From a virus (Duplodnaviria > Heunggongvirae > Uroviricota > Caudoviricetes): a DNA stretch of 46,563 nt. A model generated the notes under the pieces. It did not search any database and was not told the DNA's origin. It saw nothing but the letters and a program-made list of their open reading frames with translations. Positions 2,891 to 45,195 of this stretch are shown in pieces (position 1 is the stretch's first letter; every line of letters starts with the position of its first letter). The position numbers and the translations under genes were made by a program. The stretch spans positions 1 to 46,563 of IMG/VR virus record IMGVR_UViG_2721755658_000005. One strand, given 5' to 3'.

Positions 2891-3232
2891 ATGAAAACTT
2901 TGCCTGCAACAACTCAGCGGGCGGTGAAGCCCTGCCTGTCACCCGTGGCTGTCTGGCAAATGCTACTGACACGCCTGCTGGAACAGCACTATGGTCTCAC
3001 CCTCAACGACACACCGTTCAGTGAGGAACGTGTTATACAGGAACATATCGATGCCGGGATCTCGCTGGCTGATGCCGTGAATTTTCTGGTGGAAAAATAC
3101 GAACTGGTGCGTATCGACAGGAAGGGATTTAACTGGCAGGAACAATCGCCTTATCTTCAGGCTGTCGATATTCTGCGAGCGCGGCAGGCAACTGGCTTGT
3201 TGCAGCAAAGCCGTAGCAACGTAGTACGATGA
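2891..3232 (+). CDS. CbtA-family type IV toxin (YeeV/YkfI/YpjF-like)
   Basis: Starts [43 protein letters not shown], the canonical CbtA-family N-terminus; ATG at 2891 lies inside the longer tracked ORF 2828..3232. Confidence 0.8.
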
Positions 3233-3619
3233 ACATTGCGTACAACCTTCCCGATTTACATTTCTGAACTTCCTCCCTTGTTTACCTATTGCGTAATGCG
3301 CCTGCTGCTACCCGGCTGGCGCGTTATCTTTTTACGGACAAACCATCATGCAACCAGAAGGTGAAGTATTAACCGATCATAATGAGCTAATTTGTTCAAG
3401 CTTTATTGAACACATTGCCAACACATTGAATTTAGGAGTGGTGTAGACATGGACAACTAAACCTGCAGCCACGGAGGTATAGCGAGTGAAGCCCTATCCG
3501 ACCTTTTTGGTCAGTAGATAAGATTGATCTTCGTTGATAGAATTTACTTACATCAGCAGTTACATGAAAATAATTTTTGGTGGGAAAAAGATAAGACACT
3601 ACGTAACTATTTGATTTCT

Positions 3620-4080: not shown

Positions 4081-5793
4081 CTAATTGGTCTCTATAATTG
4101 AGCTTAATTCGTTAATGAGCAGGTGAGGGCTCATTTGAGTTAAGTCATACTGCCGCCCCAATTTCTCTTGCATTCCTCCTCGTATTTTCTTTAATAAATA
4201 TTTGCCTTTAATGTTATTAACTGATGTCGGAACTTGGTTTCCAAATAATGTTAGGTGTCGAGGGCATGCTTCCAGTCTCCCCTTATATAAATTATATTTA
4301 ATCACCTCTCTTTTGGATTGAAAATCAGACTGGATGACAACATGATTTTGTGCGGCTATATCAGTAATCCATGTTTGTATATCTTGCACAGAAGAGCCTG
4401 TAACATGAGATAAATGCTCTATTCTGGTAAAATAACTCTCAATATCACTACCTTCAGTAATGAATGGAATGGCGCCACCTCTTTGAATTTCTGCTTTTAC
4501 TATATCTACTTCTTCATCAGTCATAAAATCGCGGTCACGATGAATTATAACCTTGCAATTAGGGGACATTTCCTTAAGAAGGTCAGCAGATACAATTGCT
4601 CCTTGCACATTTGTGCATGTTTTGTAGCTATAGACTGCAGTTCTCTCCATATCAAAACCATTATATTGTAAAAGGGCCTTGAAATATTTTTTATCTCTAT
4701 CTTCAGTGAGAAATATATTCTCCACAACTCCTTCAGTTACTCTATCCAAGTCATTTAAAGCTCCTAAATCTAAGAACATTGATATTTTGTCCAAATCCAT
4801 GCCTTGATTCTGAACATTACCATCTTTCATCCAAATAAAATTTGCCTCTCCATACAATGAATCAATTATATGTTTGCTATGAGTGGAAAGTATAACTTGA
4901 GTTTCTGATTTGTTATTTTCTGATATTAAACTCAATGAGTCAGTGAGAATATATTGATTATCAGGGTGAAGATGAGAATCCGGTTCATCTAAGAGTAATA
5001 ATTTAGGTTTGAAATATACTATATATGCAAATATCTGTAATGTTTGAAGTAATCCAGTTCCCGCCAACTCGATAGGGTAATTTTTCCCACTTGCATTTTC
5101 TTTAAAATTAACGGTTAGATAAGTATCTTTATCCTCTTTGAAATCCACTTCGATTTCTATATCTGGAAATACAACTTGCAGCATGCTATTGAGATTTACC
5201 AAGTGGTTATCTTTGTTCAGATAGTATATGACATTCCTTAAGTATAAATTTGCATCACCACTTGCCACTCCTCTTCTAACTATTGCTGGCGATTTTAATT
5301 CTTCCTTCTGTGAGATACCAGCCAGACCAGGGACATATATACTAAAGAGATTTTTTTCATCGGTGATTACTGAACCGAAGCCGGTATAATCACCGGTTCT
5401 TTCACATGACATATTTCCATGATTTCGTCCCTTAGATATAATTATATTGTATTCTAATTGTCGACCAGCAAGATCATCATATCCAAAAAGACTCAACACA
5501 CTTTGATTGCCAGGCGACCTCGAATTCTTATAAGGTTCGCCGTTCTTTAAAACAGTGAAGTCTGGGGTGATATTATACATTAAAAGTTCAGTAGAGAATG
5601 TTTGTTGACTTTGTTGCCGAGCGGCAATAGCTGCGCATACTGAAAAATGTATAGCTTGCAGAATACTGCTCTTACCTGAACTATTTGCCCCTACTAATAC
5701 ATTTATATCACTAAGGGTGATTTCTGCTGTGTCAATTTTTTTGAATTTACTAACAGACAAAGACTTAATGAACATTTTCTTTTCCTTTTTCAA
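4081..5793 (-). CDS. OLD-family-like ABC-type ATPase with C-terminal TOPRIM-like region; candidate phage-exclusion protein
   Basis: Walker A GANSSGKSS, Walker B LLLLDEPDSHLHP, H-loop-like LSTHS; C-terminal acidic motifs FLTEDRD and IIHRDRD; gene visibly AT-rich compared with flanking DNA. Confidence 0.6.
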   Translation of the reverse strand: MKKEKKMFIKSLSVSKFKKIDTAEITLSDINVLVGANSSGKSSILQAIHFSVCAAIAARQQSQQTFSTELLMYNITPDFTVLKNGEPYKNSRSPGNQSVLSLFGYDDLAGRQLEYNIIISKGRNHGNMSCERTGDYTGFGSVITDEKNLFSIYVPGLAGISQKEELKSPAIVRRGVASGDANLYLRNVIYYLNKDNHLVNLNSMLQVVFPDIEIEVDFKEDKDTYLTVNFKENASGKNYPIELAGTGLLQTLQIFAYIVYFKPKLLLLDEPDSHLHPDNQYILTDSLSLISENNKSETQVILSTHSKHIIDSLYGEANFIWMKDGNVQNQGMDLDKISMFLDLGALNDLDRVTEGVVENIFLTEDRDKKYFKALLQYNGFDMERTAVYSYKTCTNVQGAIVSADLLKEMSPNCKVIIHRDRDFMTDEEVDIVKAEIQRGGAIPFITEGSDIESYFTRIEHLSHVTGSSVQDIQTWITDIAAQNHVVIQSDFQSKREVIKYNLYKGRLEACPRHLTLFGNQVPTSVNNIKGKYLLKKIRGGMQEKLGRQYDLTQMSPHLLINELSSIIETN

Positions 5794-39623: not shown

Positions 39624-40228
39624 GCGTTAGTTTCTCCACAGTCACGACACGCCACGGCGCCCGGAGCTGCACACTCGCGGGCGTCATTACTTTCTGAAAT
39701 GCAAAAGATTTTGTAGACCAGTGCTGCATGCTCCTGCAGCTTCGAAATTGAGAGATACAGCTCGTCGTTAATTGCTGTCTTCTCATGCGGTTCCACTACA
39801 CCGTCTTCGATTGCTGAACGAATCTGTTTTGAATAACTGCCGATCTGTTCAATGACTTCCAGCAGACGCTGGTTAATATCGGCGTTGTCCACATCCTCGA
39901 CGTCAGGAAGAGACACAAAGACGCCATTGGCAGACTGCGCCACAGCGTCAGCAATGAAGTGAGTTCCACCAGCACGTTGCAAAATCATTGCCCATCCCAG
40001 CGGGAAAATCTGATCGCCATCGGCACGAAGGCGGTTAAATAATGCGTTTTCTGTTACATCCAGCCAGTCAGCTGCTTCAGCGTAACCACCCGGCAACGCT
40101 GCGATAGTTTTTCTGACAGCTTTCACGTACCACTCAGGCTGTTTTTCTACTTTCCAGTGATGCTTACCCACGGTTAGCCTCATCGTTCTGTGGTTTCTGT
40201 TAATCGATTTATCCATTAGATTTTTCAT
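39620..40228 (-). CDS. CII-like phage regulatory protein (YdaT-like)
   Basis: Position directly after the Cro-like gene; start taken at internal Met MKNLMDKS of tracked ORF 39620..40285. Confidence 0.45.
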
Positions 40229-40409
40229 AAAGCTCAGGTTTAAATGGCAACCGTCCGCAAGTTCTATATGCAGCTTCTGCTGCACGTCCTTTTGGAATTA
40301 ACTGGCCCGGACGGTTTCGCCACTGATAAACGGCTTCAGTTGTTATGCCGAAAAAAGCAGCAACTTTCTCAATACTGCCGAAGTAGCTTTCGATATCGTC
40401 AGTTGTCAT
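40209..40409 (-). CDS. Cro-like HTH repressor (YdaS family)
   Basis: 66-aa product with HTH FGITTEAVYQWRNR; divergent from the CI-like gene. Confidence 0.7.
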   Translation of the reverse strand: MTTDDIESYFGSIEKVAAFFGITTEAVYQWRNRPGQLIPKGRAAEAAYRTCGRLPFKPELYEKSNG

Positions 40410-40506
40410 ACGCCCTCCAAACTAAGTTTTATTAGATGCTAATTACAAATCTATCTTTGGTCAATAAAAACTAAGATTACTTAGCAATTCAAGAAATGGT
40501 GCTCCT

Positions 40507-41133
40507 ATGGAAACGGTTGGTCAGCGTATAAAAGCTCTGAGAAGAGTTACCGGAACGTCCCAGAAAGAATTGGGTAAATTTTGTGGAGTAAGCGACGTTG
40601 CTGTGGGGTACTGGGAGAAAGACATCAATACCCCTGGTGGGGAGGCACTTTCGAAATTAGCGAAGTTCTTCAATACGTCAATAGATTACATTCTTTATGG
40701 TGCTGAGTTTGAAGGCAAACTCGTCACAAACATGCGCAGAGTTCCTGTAATATCGTGGGTTCAGGCTGGGCAGTTTACTGAGTGCAGGGCAGCAGAAGTG
40801 TTTAGTGAAGTGGACAAGTGGGTAGATACATCATTAAAGATTGGTGATAACTCATTTGCATTAGAGGTTAAAGGTGACTCCATGACTAACCCTAATGGCC
40901 TCCCAACAATACCAGAAGGCGCAACAGTGATTGTAGATCCAGATGCAGAACCTCGTCATGGAAAAATAGTCATCGCTCGACTTGATGGAACAAACGAAGC
41001 TACAGTAAAAAAATTAGTCATCGATGGCCCTCAAAAGTTTTTAGTGCCATTAAATCCTCGGTATCCCAACATCCCTATCAATGGTAATTGCCTTATCATT
41101 GGTGTAGTCAAAGGAGTTCAATACGAACTCTAA
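40507..41133 (+). CDS. CI-like repressor with S24 LexA-type autopeptidase domain
   Basis: N-terminal HTH; C-terminal catalytic serine context GDSM and lysine in ATVKKL. Confidence 0.85.
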   Translation: METVGQRIKALRRVTGTSQKELGKFCGVSDVAVGYWEKDINTPGGEALSKLAKFFNTSIDYILYGAEFEGKLVTNMRRVPVISWVQAGQFTECRAAEVFSEVDKWVDTSLKIGDNSFALEVKGDSMTNPNGLPTIPEGATVIVDPDAEPRHGKIVIARLDGTNEATVKKLVIDGPQKFLVPLNPRYPNIPINGNCLIIGVVKGVQYEL

Positions 41134-41380
41134 GACCTCTCTTCTCTAACTAAGGCACCGAACTAAGAAAAGTTTGGTGTTTTCTCTTGCCATGATAACT
41201 AAGTTAAGTTAGATTTTATATCAAAGATAACGAACAGGCAGGACGCCCACGAAGTAGCCGCCTGGGGCATATGAAGTCCAGGATGATTCGTTAGCAACAA
41301 AAAAGCGCCCTACAGGACGCTTAGCTCTTTAACAATCTGGTCCCCATCAACAAGTAACTGATAACTTGAGGAGATGTGAA

Positions 41381-41587
41381 ATGCACAAAACAGAACCCAA
41401 AATCGTCGCGCCTGGCTACACAGATGAGGAAATTTATGAGTGGATGACAAAGAAGCTGGCAGCTATAAACCAGCTTCGTGAAGTGCTGTCTTATCGACAG
41501 GAAACAATAGACTCCTTAAAAAAACTGGATCAGGAAATCACGGTTTTATCACAGGATGTTACTTTAGATATTGTGCAGACAAATTAG
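41381..41587 (+). CDS. Small hypothetical protein downstream of cI
   Basis: gaggag RBS upstream of the ATG at 41381 (tracked ORF 41366..41587). Confidence 0.4.
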   Translation: MHKTEPKIVAPGYTDEEIYEWMTKKLAAINQLREVLSYRQETIDSLKKLDQEITVLSQDVTLDIVQTN

Positions 41588-41993
41588 GATCCCATTCATT
41601 TTCGTCAAAATCATCAAAGTGATGAATTTGTGATCTCCAGTCTCGATAATCTAAAAATTTCTGGGCGGTTACGCTTATTTTATCAAGTGTGAGTTCATCC
41701 TGAATTGAAAGAAGAAGTTCATCAAATTTCATCTCATTAATCTGTTTTGGCATCCAGTGATGCTTCATCAGAATAAGGTGAACCAGAGCCTTTTTCCCAT
41801 TCAATTGATTATAGGGAGTGCCGAATTTCTTCCGGTGCTCATGTAAGACAAGGTCCAAAAGAGTAAGTAATGTTGCCCTTGATTCAACTTTGCTTATTTC
41901 GACTGATGACACTACCCCACTGATTTCAATGCCCCGATACTTTCCAACATTTTCACAGTGGGATTTGTACAGCGTATAGATATTACCGGACAT
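41559..41993 (-). CDS. AT-rich hypothetical protein in the immunity region (rex/sie-position moron)
   Basis: 144-aa ORF, AT-rich, convergent with the cI transcription unit; no recognised family. Confidence 0.45.
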   Translation of the reverse strand: MSGNIYTLYKSHCENVGKYRGIEISGVVSSVEISKVESRATLLTLLDLVLHEHRKKFGTPYNQLNGKKALVHLILMKHHWMPKQINEMKFDELLLSIQDELTLDKISVTAQKFLDYRDWRSQIHHFDDFDENEWDPNLSAQYLK

Positions 41994-42520
41994 TTCTTTT
42001 CCTTTTGCGTTGTTGGGGATAACCAGATTAACCGAATCCTTGTTGTTGGGGAATAACTAGGTCCACCTCGCCTGATGTGGCTAAAAGCAGGCACATAACA
42101 GCTAAGTATTTTCAACCAGAGAGAATCCTTAGCGTTGTGGTGAATGCGGCTCAGCGCACGCGGGTTAAGGTTGAGGCTGACAGTCGACCTTCTGTGGATA
42201 CCCACCCGCCTGGTGTGCAACCTTCACCCGGCACCACAACTTTATGCTGTGTGTAGTCCTGGCGGTACCAGTTTGTACCCTTGCTTCCGGCTGGTACCGT
42301 CCTTTTTACAAAACAGAGAAGAGCATCACCGGACGACGGGCTCATAACCCAATCCATCCGGGCGGCTGCCACCGCAGGTGTTCTTCTCTGTTTTGTGGAG
42401 AAACTAACCGCCCCTACGGGGGCATTTATGGAAATGTAATTGACTCAATAATCGCCGGACGGTGAGGGCTTCCTTTTACCCGAATTCAGCGCGGTGCAGC
42501 GCATATACGTGGAGAACAAA

Positions 42521-43057
42521 ATGTCATTTATTAAAACTTTTTCCGGGAAGCATTTTTATTATGACAGGATAAATAAAGACGACATCGTTATTAACGATAT
42601 CGCGGTTTCCCTTTCAAATATCTGTCGCTTTGCAGGACATCTTTCACACTTCTACAGTGTCGCCCAACATGCGGTGCTTTGCAGCCAGCTGGTGCCGCAG
42701 GAATTTGCTTTTGAAGCTTTAATGCATGATGCAACAGAAGCATATTGCCAGGACATCCCCGCACCACTGAAACGACTTCTTCCTGACTATAAACGGATGG
42801 AAGAAAAAATAGACGCCGTAATCCGTGAGAAATACGGGTTACCTCCTGTTATGAGCACGCCAGTGAAATATGCCGATCTCATTATGCTGGCAACCGAACG
42901 CCGCGATCTCGGGCTTGATGATGGCTCTTTCTGGCCTGTGCTGGAAGGTATCCCGGCAACAGAGATGTTCAACGTGATTCCACTGGCTCCAGGCCATGCC
43001 TACGGGATGTTTATGGAACGCTTTAACGAATTATCGGAGTTACGCAAATGCGCATGA
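42521..43057 (+). CDS. HD-domain phosphohydrolase (5'-deoxynucleotidase-like)
   Basis: H...HD motif in VAQHAVL...LMHDATEAY; ggaga RBS before the ATG at 42521. Confidence 0.65.
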   Translation: MSFIKTFSGKHFYYDRINKDDIVINDIAVSLSNICRFAGHLSHFYSVAQHAVLCSQLVPQEFAFEALMHDATEAYCQDIPAPLKRLLPDYKRMEEKIDAVIREKYGLPPVMSTPVKYADLIMLATERRDLGLDDGSFWPVLEGIPATEMFNVIPLAPGHAYGMFMERFNELSELRKCA

Positions 43058-43715: not shown

Positions 43716-44065
43716 TGGAGCCATACAGCCTCACACTCGATGAGGCCTGTCATTTTCTCAAGATATCCAGACCGACTGCCATTAACTGGATACGCACAGG
43801 GCGTCTTCAGGCAACACGCAAAGATCCCACTAAGAATAAATCTCCTTACCTCACAACACGACAAGCCTGCATTGCGGCTCTTCAGTCTCCGCTGCATACT
43901 GTCCAGGTGAGCGCGGGTGATGGCATAACAGAGGAAAGAAAATGTCACTCTTCCGCAGAGGTGAAATATGGTACGCCAGTTTCACATTGCCGAACGGTAA
44001 AAGATTTAAACAGTCTCTTGGAACAAAGGACAAAAGGCAGGCGACAGAACTCCATGACAAGCTAA
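43715..44065 (+). CDS. Excisionase-like DNA-binding protein (AlpA/Xis-type HTH)
   Basis: [33 protein letters not shown] is a typical Xis/AlpA HTH; the frame runs on past the integrase start, so the true stop is uncertain. Confidence 0.5.
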
Positions 44066-45105
44066 AGGCTGAAGCATGGCGGGTCAGCAAACTTGGTGAA
44101 ATACCTGATATAACGTTCGAGGAAGCGTGTGTCAGGTGGCTTGAAGAGAAAGCACATAAAAAATCACTGGACGATGACAAAAGCCGGATCGGATTCTGGC
44201 TTCAACATTTCGCAGGAATGCAACTAAGAGACATTACTGAATCAAAAATTTATTCAGCAATGCAGAAAATGACGAACCGGCGTCATGAGGAAAACTGGAA
44301 ACTCAGGGCAGAAGCATGCAGAAAAAAAGGGAAACCTGTTCCAGAATACACGCCAAAACCAGCGTCCGTTGCAACGAAGGCTACGCATCTTTCATTTATA
44401 AAGGCCCTACTAAGAGCCGCAGAGCGTGAATGGAAAATGCTGGATAAGGCACCAATTATTAAAGTGCCTCAACCAAAGAATAAACGGATCCGCTGGCTGG
44501 AGCCCCATGAAGCACAAAGGCTGATTGATGAATGTCCGGAGCCATTAAAGTCTGTTGTTGAATTTGCACTGGCAACAGGCTTAAGACGCTCGAACATCAT
44601 CAACCTTGAATGGCAACAAATAGATATGCAGCGCCGGGTGGCATGGATAAACCCGGAAGAGAGTAAATCAAACCGCGCAATTGGCGTTGCGCTGAATGAT
44701 ACTGCATGTCGCGTATTGAAAAAACAAATCGGGAATCATCACCGTTGGGTATTTGTGTACAAGGAAAGCTGTACCAAACCAGACGGAACGAAAGCGCCAA
44801 CAGTAAGGAAGATGCGGTATGACGCAAACACAGCCTGGAAAGCGGCGCTGAGACGGGCTGGTATTGATGATTTCAGATTTCACGACTTGAGACACACCTG
44901 GGCAAGTTGGCTGGTTCAAGCCGGAGTCCCGTTGTCAGTGTTACAGGAAATGGGAGGCTGGGAGTCTATCGAAATGGTTCGTCGATATGCTCACCTTGCA
45001 CCTAATCACCTTACCGAACACGCACGGCAAATAGACTCGATCCTGAACCCATCGGTCCCAAATTTGTCCCAGTCAAAAAATAAGGAAGGTACTAATGATG
45101 TGTAA
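43942..45105 (+). CDS. int: Tyrosine integrase (phage integrase family)
   Basis: N-terminus [28 protein letters not shown]; C-terminal R...H..R...Y context (HDLRHTWAS...RYAHL); ends 15 bp from tRNA-Thr. Confidence 0.9.
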
Positions 45106-45119
45106 CTTATTGATTTACA

Positions 45120-45195
45120 TGGTGCCGATAATAGGAGTCGAACCTACGACCTTCGCATTACGAATGCGCTGCTCTACCAACTGAGCTATATCGGC
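45120..45195 (-). tRNA. thrW: tRNA-Thr (anticodon CGU)
   Basis: Reverse complement reads GCCGATATAGCTCAGTTGGTAGAGCAGCGCATTCGTAATGCGAAGGTCGTAGGTTCGACTCCTATTATCGGCACCA with anticodon loop TTCGTAA. Confidence 0.9.

Follow-up and report, generated by a model that had tools for sequence, protein, structure and literature searches.

A noncoding, modular RNA region ahead of the early-left genes of e14/SfV-type lambdoid prophages, with a small-RNA-like unit and an undescribed structured RNA

Introduction

What is encoded in the GC-rich, gene-poor stretch that lies just upstream of the early-left genes of a lambdoid prophage? We addressed this question for positions 42006–42480 of a 46,563-nucleotide (nt) viral DNA (IMG/VR record IMGVR_UViG_2721755658_000005, positions 1 to 46,563; hereafter, the window), which represents a lambdoid prophage of the e14/SfV/ST64B type read in the "leftward" sense, with K-12 e14, SfV/SfII/SfIV, mEp460, cdtI, some Stx2 phages and ST64B as its closest relatives. 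A preliminary description of this locus had proposed a put-like antitermination RNA, a small RNA (sRNA) or operator sites. Our analysis shows that it is a real and widespread RNA region that has been mis-annotated or left unannotated. Judging from sequence comparison, its left half is a prophage sRNA of a known kind whose seed has been borrowed from the host sRNA RprA, and its right half is an undescribed structured RNA. On balance, we consider it probable that the whole region is the noncoding, modular RNA leader of the early-left (pL) operon, composed of an sRNA unit that ends in a terminator and a processing/stability element that we call Module D.

Results

The region is widespread and noncoding

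The general features reported in the preliminary description were borne out. The GC content is 0.49–0.56 across 42000–42499, compared with 0.35–0.45 in both flanks, and only short overlapping open reading frames (ORFs) occur, the longest of 73 amino acids on the plus strand and 102 on the minus strand. The stretch is rich in hairpins: 42230–42480 folds on the plus strand at −101.8 kcal/mol (z = −5.6, equaled by 0 of 200 shuffles), and the minus strand gives z = −4.3. The inverted repeat turned out to be longer than the 18 bp noted, with arms of 25 nt (42308–42332/42372–42396) that are 84% complementary and whose first 18 positions form 17 Watson–Crick pairs and one G·T; the further GC hairpin behind it lies at 42409–42424. 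A 13-bp hairpin at 42261–42301, followed by UUUUU at 42303–42307, had been overlooked.

Of 5426 complete E. coli genomes, 2781 contain DNA resembling 42000–42500. The element also occurs in no fewer than eight further genera; a pattern scan detected it in Atlantibacter, Buttiauxella, Mixta, Mangrovibacter, Enterobacter, Pseudocitrobacter and Klebsiella, and a second scan, in which the arm-A loop described below was left unconstrained, found it in more than 120 viral contigs. Its placement upstream of the early-left genes, as originally described, agrees with the ORF list and with the annotated relatives, in all of which the block is preceded by cI (plus variable morons) and followed by the first early-left gene. 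The identity of this gene differs among relatives, being yfdP-like, SfV orf32-like, rdgC-like, xisE or, as in the window, yfdR-like. Alignments and raw comparison of the relatives resolve five plus-strand modules, A to E.

Does the region encode a protein, either YmfH of K-12 or the products of the ORFs behind PHROG 3651 and 33599? RefSeq annotates ymfH in K-12, the minus-strand ORF 42151–42372 matches phrog_3651 (E 3e-35), the plus-strand ORF 42281–42439 matches phrog_33599, and several frames stay open for more than 150 nt in most relatives. However, the frames are not kept among e14, SfV and the window: relative to YmfH of e14, SfV is out of frame by a 1-nt indel, and the window copy is interrupted by a 17-nt deletion. 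Module lengths differ by 1, 2, 4, 23 or 25 nt, which are not multiples of three, and even the best frame has in-frame stops in 2 of 33 representatives (Mixta and Pseudocitrobacter). Furthermore, the synonymous fraction is 25–48% in all six frames, with no clear excess in any (25 allele events among 22 gapless relatives), a Pfam search of the region gave no match, and the PHROG matches are explained by DNA that is ~95% identical. A conserved coding frame, one of the outcomes that had been named as overturning an RNA interpretation, was thus not obtained in the six-frame comparison of relatives. The region 42006–42480 is not protein-coding, and a protein product is scarcely credible; K-12 ymfH (3076–3387 of locus L001) and PHROG 3651 and 33599 appear to be ORF calls laid over a conserved RNA region.

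The left half resembles a prophage small RNA with an RprA seed

If not a protein, what does the left half specify? Modules B and C, which include the seed and the terminator, make up a unit (42112–42307) in which a scaffold of variable interior is closed by a helix between GUUGUGGUG (42134–42142) and CACCACAAC (42232–42240). The entire unit of SfV, e14 and ST64B can be aligned from end to end with the Rfam sRNA family STnc100. The SfV homolog scores 39.5 bits (E 3.6e-7) in an end-to-end alignment with RF02076, and ST64B scores 35.1 bits, against a gathering score of 47. The Rfam search that had been suggested for the window was informative through its relatives, which align with the STnc100 and RprA models, and not through the window itself, which gave noise-level matches only at gathering and permissive thresholds; against STnc100, the window copy had no match even at E ≤ 10 in a 271-nt search. 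The lack of a match is explained by the loss of 17 nt (CGCCAGGCACCGGGAGG) between 42224 and 42225, a segment that SfV, e14 and the window's closest relatives in E. coli and IMG/VR retain. This deletion, private to the window copy, removes the AGGCA hairpin (CCGGGAGGCACCCGG), the most conserved hairpin of the STnc100 type, which sits beside the 3′ strand of the closing helix and keeps its AGGCA loop while its stem changes (CCGGG/CCCGG versus GGUGG/CCACC). The absence of the 17 nt may alternatively be an assembly error. Despite the deletion, the closing helix, seed and terminator still fold in the window copy.

The seed connects the unit to the host. A literal text search for GCUGUGUGUAGUC led to the RprA sequence, and BLAST identity to RprA amounts to 14/14 nt in the window, 16/16 in e14 and 26/26 in phage LLS (E 1.4e-9), where it extends into the terminator stem. 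On the RprA model, LLS scores 40.8 bits, contributed by the 3′ half only, where 70 bits are required, and the window has no match. The small-RNA option of the preliminary description is thus supported by a left half that aligns both with STnc100 and with the 3′ half of RprA. The processed form of RprA, consisting of its last 47 nt, is stable and active and represses narP. Other subfamilies carry different seeds on the same scaffold and terminator, for example AGCCACUGCUUU in mEp460 and Stx2 phages, and prophage anti-sRNAs are likewise built from a constant 3′ module with variable seeds, as in the seed-swapped subfamilies seen here. In mEp460 and Stx2a_1447 (loci L003 and L004, about 2990–3010), the RprA-like seed is replaced by CACCACAACAGCCACUGCUUU, which contains CACAACA, the GcvB target consensus of the prophage anti-sRNA literature that is used by the anti-sRNA AgvB; this seed is possibly an anti-GcvB variant. 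The Rfam search gave no match for the mEp460-type relatives.

The seed is followed by an intrinsic terminator whose form is kept while its sequence is not. Among 81 distinct upstream variants, 78 keep a stable hairpin ending no more than 3 nt from a run of five to seven T residues, and at least seven unrelated stem sequences serve this purpose among the relatives. The terminator matches the DicF model weakly, with 15.7 bits in the window and 29.6 bits in locus L116 (gathering score 48).

Several relatives show variations on this unit. In L116 (4364–4488, minus strand), GUUGUGG and CCACAAC enclose a tRNA-like scaffold that contains a long insertion and reaches 29.5 bits on the tRNA model (gathering score 29); the closing helix takes the place of the acceptor stem, and the terminator module with the DicF likeness lies at 4266–4314 (minus strand). 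ARAGORN predicted no tRNA in the scaffolds of ten loci, L116 included, and neither the window scaffold nor Module D matched the tRNA model. Long terminator loops in L005 (ST64B, about 2945–3010), L013, L015, L031, L007 and L016 contain the motif AGGAGG-N7-(A/G)TG TTC TG. within the loop. The start codon opens an ORF of 10–53 codons into Module D in some relatives and of 2 codons in Mangrovibacter, and it is replaced by ACG in Klebsiella phage Kp4866-6 (L007). These features hint that ribosomes bind within the terminator loop, a possible way of coupling translation to termination.

Upstream of the unit, Module A is conserved although the adjoining sequence otherwise differs. In SfV, its AAGACA-17-TATTTT parallels the TTGACA-17-GCATTT found upstream of canonical STnc100, so that Module A may be the promoter region of the sRNA.

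Two other prophage RNAs were considered as the identity of the element and set aside: svsR, the NC-SV prophage sRNA, is a different element located at the 3′ end of cI, and co293 of e14 is located elsewhere. In ST64B (L005, 193–381, minus strand), a C4 antisense RNA (79.7 bits) lies beside IsrK (64.3 bits), beyond the replication-side genes; neither of these known families is found in the window.

The right half is a conserved three-way-junction RNA

Module D, a three-way junction of a long stem (P1) and two arms, is the most conserved part of the region and is almost invariant across genera. The comparison of structure and covariation that had been recommended was carried out on 33 representatives, and the results show that the structure is conserved and its helices covary: 94.8% of the alignment cells are paired, compared with 38–50% when the partners are slid. 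Nine pairs have changed on both sides, with exchanges in P1 between GC and CG, AU and GC, and CG and AU. One pair is U·G in 31 of 33 sequences and another is G·U in 10 of 33; because such pairs would be mismatches on the other strand, they place the RNA on the plus strand. Consistent with this, the covariance model of Module D (R1) scores 124 bits on the plus strand and 42.9 on the minus strand. With covarying helices, a strand fixed by G·U pairs and no conserved frame, the proposal of a small or cis-acting RNA is supported. P1 can be extended to ~25 bp by pairing the U-run of the terminator (U42303–42307) with a conserved GGAGA at 42397–42401. Model R1 detected no second copy in the pR operon or elsewhere in the window, no Rfam family matches Module D, and no Module D follows canonical STnc100 or occurs in HK022. 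In L108 (9201–9337), Module D is recombinant, with a 5′ arm of the SfV type, a 3′ arm and arm B of another type, and two mismatches in P1, which places recombination breakpoints inside the element.

Hairpin E, which follows Module D, behaves differently. The relatives have a different GC hairpin at this position, usually with a (U)GCAG loop, and it changes together with the first gene.

Could arm A be a mimic of the initiator tRNA? The segment GGGCUCAUAACCC of arm A equals three G–C pairs plus the CUCAUAA loop of the anticodon stem-loop of E. coli tRNA-fMet. On this basis, arm A could engage the 30S P site with IF3, MetRS or a VapC-type anticodon nuclease, whether as ligand or as decoy, with P1 merely presenting it or permitting its excision. 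The loop is CUCAU in 110 of 112 distinct cores although the search pattern placed no constraint on it, the stems of arm A hardly change whereas P1 and arm B do, and the neighboring scaffold is tRNA-like in one subfamily, as described above for L116. On the other hand, the match came to notice only after the fact, positions 37 and 38 of the loop are variable (AA, UA or UC), the e14 loop has diverged to UUAAUAA, the fourth stem pair is mismatched, Module D had no match on the tRNA model, ARAGORN predicted nothing, and no partner has been identified. Functional mimicry is, in our estimate, unlikely. Complements of the arm-A loop occur in the window at chance level. A pairing of the CUCAU loop with the start-codon region of the next gene was also tried and rejected, as AUGAG is found in some first genes and is absent from others, including that of the window.

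A proposed course of events in the early-left leader

How might these modules work together? Transcripts started at the pL-like promoter (41187–41215) would have to cross the region to reach the early-left genes. The left half comprises an STnc100/PasD-kind scaffold, an exposed seed copied from RprA and an intrinsic terminator. A polymerase that is not termination-resistant would stop at 42307 and yield the sRNA, and either this stop or cleavage immediately 3′ of the closing helix would leave a short RNA that consists of the seed, the terminator and a U-tail. Hfq-type sRNAs and processed RprA are likewise built from an exposed seed, a hairpin and a U-tail (U5–7 here); a short RNA of this kind would be expected to depend on Hfq and could act in trans on host RNAs touched by RprA. 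The terminator would also keep the nucleotidase gene, xis and int off unless the pL polymerase reads through, and the required resistance to termination might plausibly come from the 65-nt leader at 41229–41295, which lies outside the studied region. The read-through RNA would then fold into Module D, whose 20–25 bp stem would absorb the U-tract of the terminator. As an RNase III-type duplex, Module D would separate the sRNA from the mRNA and set the 5′ end of the latter; this role in processing and stability is the one that we favor, on the analogy of the lambda N leader and of DicF maturation. The e14 ymfH gene belongs to the prophage-induction iModulon, and this co-regulation with prophage induction genes fits transcription driven from pL.

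A number of observations weigh against this course of events. The promoter scan gave no convincing sRNA promoter in the window, the window copy may be impaired by the loss of the most conserved STnc100 hairpin, and the relatives score below the gathering thresholds of both STnc100 and RprA. No target of the seed was recognized within the window, where complements occur at chance level, and expression data for the element were not found. In two loci, L079 and L106, Module D is present without an upstream terminator. The RNase III role is drawn from analogy only, and the supplementary data of one E. coli RNase III study list only ymfJ–cohE, with no site here. A processing role also leaves the near-invariance of arm A unexplained, which is why the tRNA-fMet mimic is kept as a live rival.

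Alternatively, the terminator and Module D might form an attenuator or riboswitch-like switch that senses a signal and sets read-through or translation of the early-left genes, the upstream RNA having no function in trans. A terminator placed in a leader directly before the operon suits such a switch, as do the ability of its U-tract to pair with the conserved GGAGA after P1 and the AGGAGG-N7-ATG/GTG motif of the long-loop variants, which could couple translation to termination. However, there is no conserved alternative antiterminator pairing, Module D is transcribed only after the decision to terminate has been made, the seed region differs from one subfamily to another as sRNA seeds do, and the downstream genes are not constant. 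We regard a sensing switch as improbable and retain the modular leader with an sRNA unit as the preferred interpretation.

Gene setting and the direct repeats

The features of the locus are collected in Table 1. The tRNA-Thr gene next to int is probably the attachment site of the prophage, of the thrW type.

Table 1. Features of the immunity, early-left and integration regions of the window.
Feature	Position	Strand	Basis or remark
cro	40209–40409	−	
cI/Cro operators, motif AACTAAG..CTTAG	40420–40484 (oR) and 41161–41222 (oL)		Motif common to both
cI, LexA-family	40507–41133	+	
pL-like promoter, TTGCCA-17-TAGATT	41187–41215	+	Promoter scan; within oL operators
Conserved pL-proximal leader RNA, ~65 nt, CGAACAGGCAGGACGCCCACGAAGUAGCCGCC-hairpin-AUGAUUCG	41229–41295	+	Outside 42006–42480, right after pL
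Two small morons	41366–41587 and 41559–41993	+ and −	Between pL and the studied region
Two C/A-rich repeats, UCCCCAACAAC on the minus strand, 33 nt apart	42009–42057	−	5′ leader/promoter region of gene 41559–41993
Module A, CCACC..GCCUGAUGUGG..AAAAGCAGGCAC block	42064–42100	+	Conserved in e14, SfV, Atlantibacter, Mixta, Mangrovibacter
STnc100-type scaffold	42112–42244	+	SfV/ST64B model alignments
Single-stranded seed, UGCUGUGUGUAGUC	42245–42258	+	Equals RprA nt 62–75, inside processed RprA; unpaired in fold
Intrinsic terminator, 13-bp stem 42261–42273/42289–42301 plus UUUUU 42303–42307	42261–42307	+	Fold
Module D, three-way-junction RNA	42303–42404	+	Covariation, covariance model
Module D P1	42308–42327/42377–42396	+	20 bp
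Module D arm A	42329–42361	+	GGGCUCAUAACCC at 42338–42350
Module D arm B	42362–42375	+	Length and sequence variable
Hairpin E (Module E), CGCCCCUACGGGGGCA	42409–42424	+	Part of the 5′ untranslated region specific to the downstream gene
Spacer and ribosome-binding region of first early-left gene	42425–42520	+	ORF list; same junction in L028, L039, L048, L067
HD-domain 5′-deoxynucleotidase (YfdR/YfbR-like), first early-left gene	ATG at 42521	+	Pfam YfbR-like, PHROG 318
xis, then int	int 43942–45105		Downstream of the nucleotidase gene
tRNA-Thr, anticodon CGU	45123–45195	−	Adjoins integrase gene; sole tRNA of the window

The direct repeats at the left edge of the region were confirmed in part: an exact 11-nt core, GTTGTTGGGGA, occurs at 42009 and 42042, but the longer pattern originally given is slightly off, as the second copy has an extra A. 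Both copies and their spacer are conserved in Atlantibacter, Mixta and Mangrovibacter. A third, inverted, related copy at 41334–41354 lies in the plus-strand leader of the ORF 41366–41587, and in both moron leaders (41334–41354, plus; 42009–42057, minus) the motif AAUCUGGU..CCCCA.CAACAA stands upstream of the start codon. C/A-rich leader motifs act as translational enhancers and as targets of GcvB. The GTTGTTGGGGA repeats are best read as C/A-rich leader motifs of the minus-strand gene 41559–41993, and the motif shared by the two moron leaders may be a common site of translational control or the target of a G/U-rich sRNA such as GcvB; we infer this link to enhancement or targeting from the motif.

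Might the repeats and palindromes instead function as DNA, serving as operators, recombination sites or origin-like structures? Two direct repeats 33 bp apart and an inverted third copy do flank the two-gene cassette 41366–41993, and the long inverted repeat would suit such a role. However, Module D accepts G·U pairs on just one of the two strands, and its covariance-model score differs strongly between them. The window-wide count of the repeat is only marginally above chance (3 matches compared with 0.86 expected; 4 of 100 shuffles reach 3). The cI/Cro operators, moreover, have a different motif and different positions (40420–40484 and 41161–41222), and the operator sites proposed in the preliminary description are not supported. 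A function as DNA is very unlikely.

The put question and a leader close to pL

Is the region a put-like antiterminator, as had been suggested? The put RNAs of HK022 are ~70 nt long with two stem-loops, bind the zinc-binding domain of the RNA polymerase β′ subunit, and lie directly after pL (putL, starting at +3) and after pR (putR). When putL and putR were read and folded, neither a sequence nor a fold in common with 42006–42480 was found. The region lies ~0.8–1.2 kb from pL, is present as a single copy in the window, and has its most conserved module 3′ of the terminator. Membership of the put family is rejected.

Module D could still resemble put in function, if its nascent three-way junction were to bind RNA polymerase after the sRNA terminator and the bound polymerase were carried through later terminators to xis and int. 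It has two adjacent stem-loops with a near-invariant sequence, as expected of a surface that contacts a protein, it marks the start of the operon whatever gene follows, and no N-like gene was noticed, although no systematic search for one was made. However, Module D shares no similarity with putL or putR, lies ~1.1 kb from pL whereas putL starts at +3, has neither a second copy nor a pR-side partner, and is followed on the plus strand by only two weak terminator-like sites. There is also a better-placed candidate at 41229–41295, and we give antitermination by Module D only a small chance.

This candidate, the pL-proximal leader, follows at least five different, unrelated immunity/promoter types and is found in 51 phage records from E. 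coli, Salmonella, Klebsiella, Pantoea, Yersinia, Pectobacterium, Providencia and Aeromonas. Its hairpin shows three covarying pairs, it is present once in the window and has no Rfam family, and it is like putL in size and position but not in sequence. The leader is a candidate put/nut-like antitermination site that is better placed than 42006–42480. An obligatory linkage of Module D with this leader was considered and dropped, as only 67 of 127 loci have both. Right after the leader, a GC hairpin (AAGCGCCCUACAGGACGCUU, 41303–41322) is bordered by an A-run and, at its opposite end, by a U-rich stretch, and is conserved with the leader in many loci; it looks like a terminator of the minus strand and perhaps a weak one of the plus strand.

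The pieces can also be combined into one far-reaching proposal, in which Module D is a new class of structured phage RNA that mimics the initiator-tRNA arm, the upstream unit is a tRNA-derived platform for swapping seeds, the hijacked RprA seed included, and 41229–41295 is a protein-independent antiterminator. Module D would then target either the machinery of translation initiation or nucleases directed at tRNA-fMet; it could, for instance, be a decoy for VapC-type toxins. We rate this combination as a long shot.

Discussion

Why does this region matter? It is found in about half of the complete E. coli genomes and in at least eight other genera, yet annotations either pass over it or call it a hypothetical protein, and K-12 lists it as YmfH. 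Should the sRNA be produced, a second copy of the RprA 3′ seed would be under phage control in many strains, K-12 among them by way of e14. Prophage induction would then be linked to RprA-linked regulation, as in the repression of narP by processed RprA, and the assignment of RprA reads in interaction maps would be confused. Few noncoding blocks of these phages are as conserved as Module D, for which Rfam has no family. Furthermore, the combination of scaffold, exchangeable seed and terminator would offer a concrete case of phages building and diversifying sRNAs from host and tRNA-like parts.

Comparison with known systems

How does the element compare with RNAs that are already known? Like STnc100 (RF02076) and its relative PasD, the unit is ~200 nt long and prophage-borne, with a closing helix ..UGGUG/CACCA.., a CCGGG-AGGCA-CCCGG hairpin that abuts the 3′ strand of this helix, and a single-stranded stretch followed by an intrinsic terminator. 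This architecture is complete in SfV, e14 and ST64B, and the window retains the closing helix, seed and terminator but not the CCGGGAGGCACCCGG hairpin. Unlike the element in the early-left leader, canonical STnc100 copies lie in the late region, downstream of stx2B or near the Q/lysis genes, have another seed and are not followed by Module D, and the scores of the relatives (39.5 and 35.1 versus 47) and the unmatched window copy set the two further apart. By its alignments, the left half is a diverged relative of STnc100 in a new position.

With RprA (RF00034), the element shares the seed UGCUGUGUGUAGUC and, in the LLS type, 26 identical nt that reach into the terminator stem GCCCAUC; as in processed RprA, the seed is followed by a terminator and a U-tail; the likeness is to the 3′ module. 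It does not extend over the full length: unlike RprA, the element lacks the 5′ two-thirds, including most of the stretch that pairs with rpoS, is phage-borne, has a different upstream scaffold and, in the window, has an unrelated terminator stem.

HK022 put RNAs resemble the element as cis-acting RNAs of a lambdoid phage without an obvious N gene; they differ from it in sequence and fold, in distance from pL and in occurring as a putL/putR pair. The hairpins cleaved by RNase III in phage leaders, as in the lambda N leader and the T7 intercistronic sites, have in common with Module D a near-perfect duplex of 20–25 bp just upstream of the first gene of an early operon. Unlike them, Module D has a conserved branched top, and its cleavage is a prediction.

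DicF (RF00039) of the Qin prophage, finally, is likewise an sRNA in a prophage early operon that ends at an intrinsic terminator, and the two share a 5′ arm, GGCGGUAxCAGUUU; unlike the element, DicF has a different seed and no STnc100-type scaffold, and the model scores are weak. Its ends reportedly (Faubladier, 1990) arise from termination or from RNase III/RNase E processing of the operon transcript. By analogy, we read modules B and C as an sRNA unit embedded in an operon, in the manner of STnc100, AsxR/AgvB and DicF.

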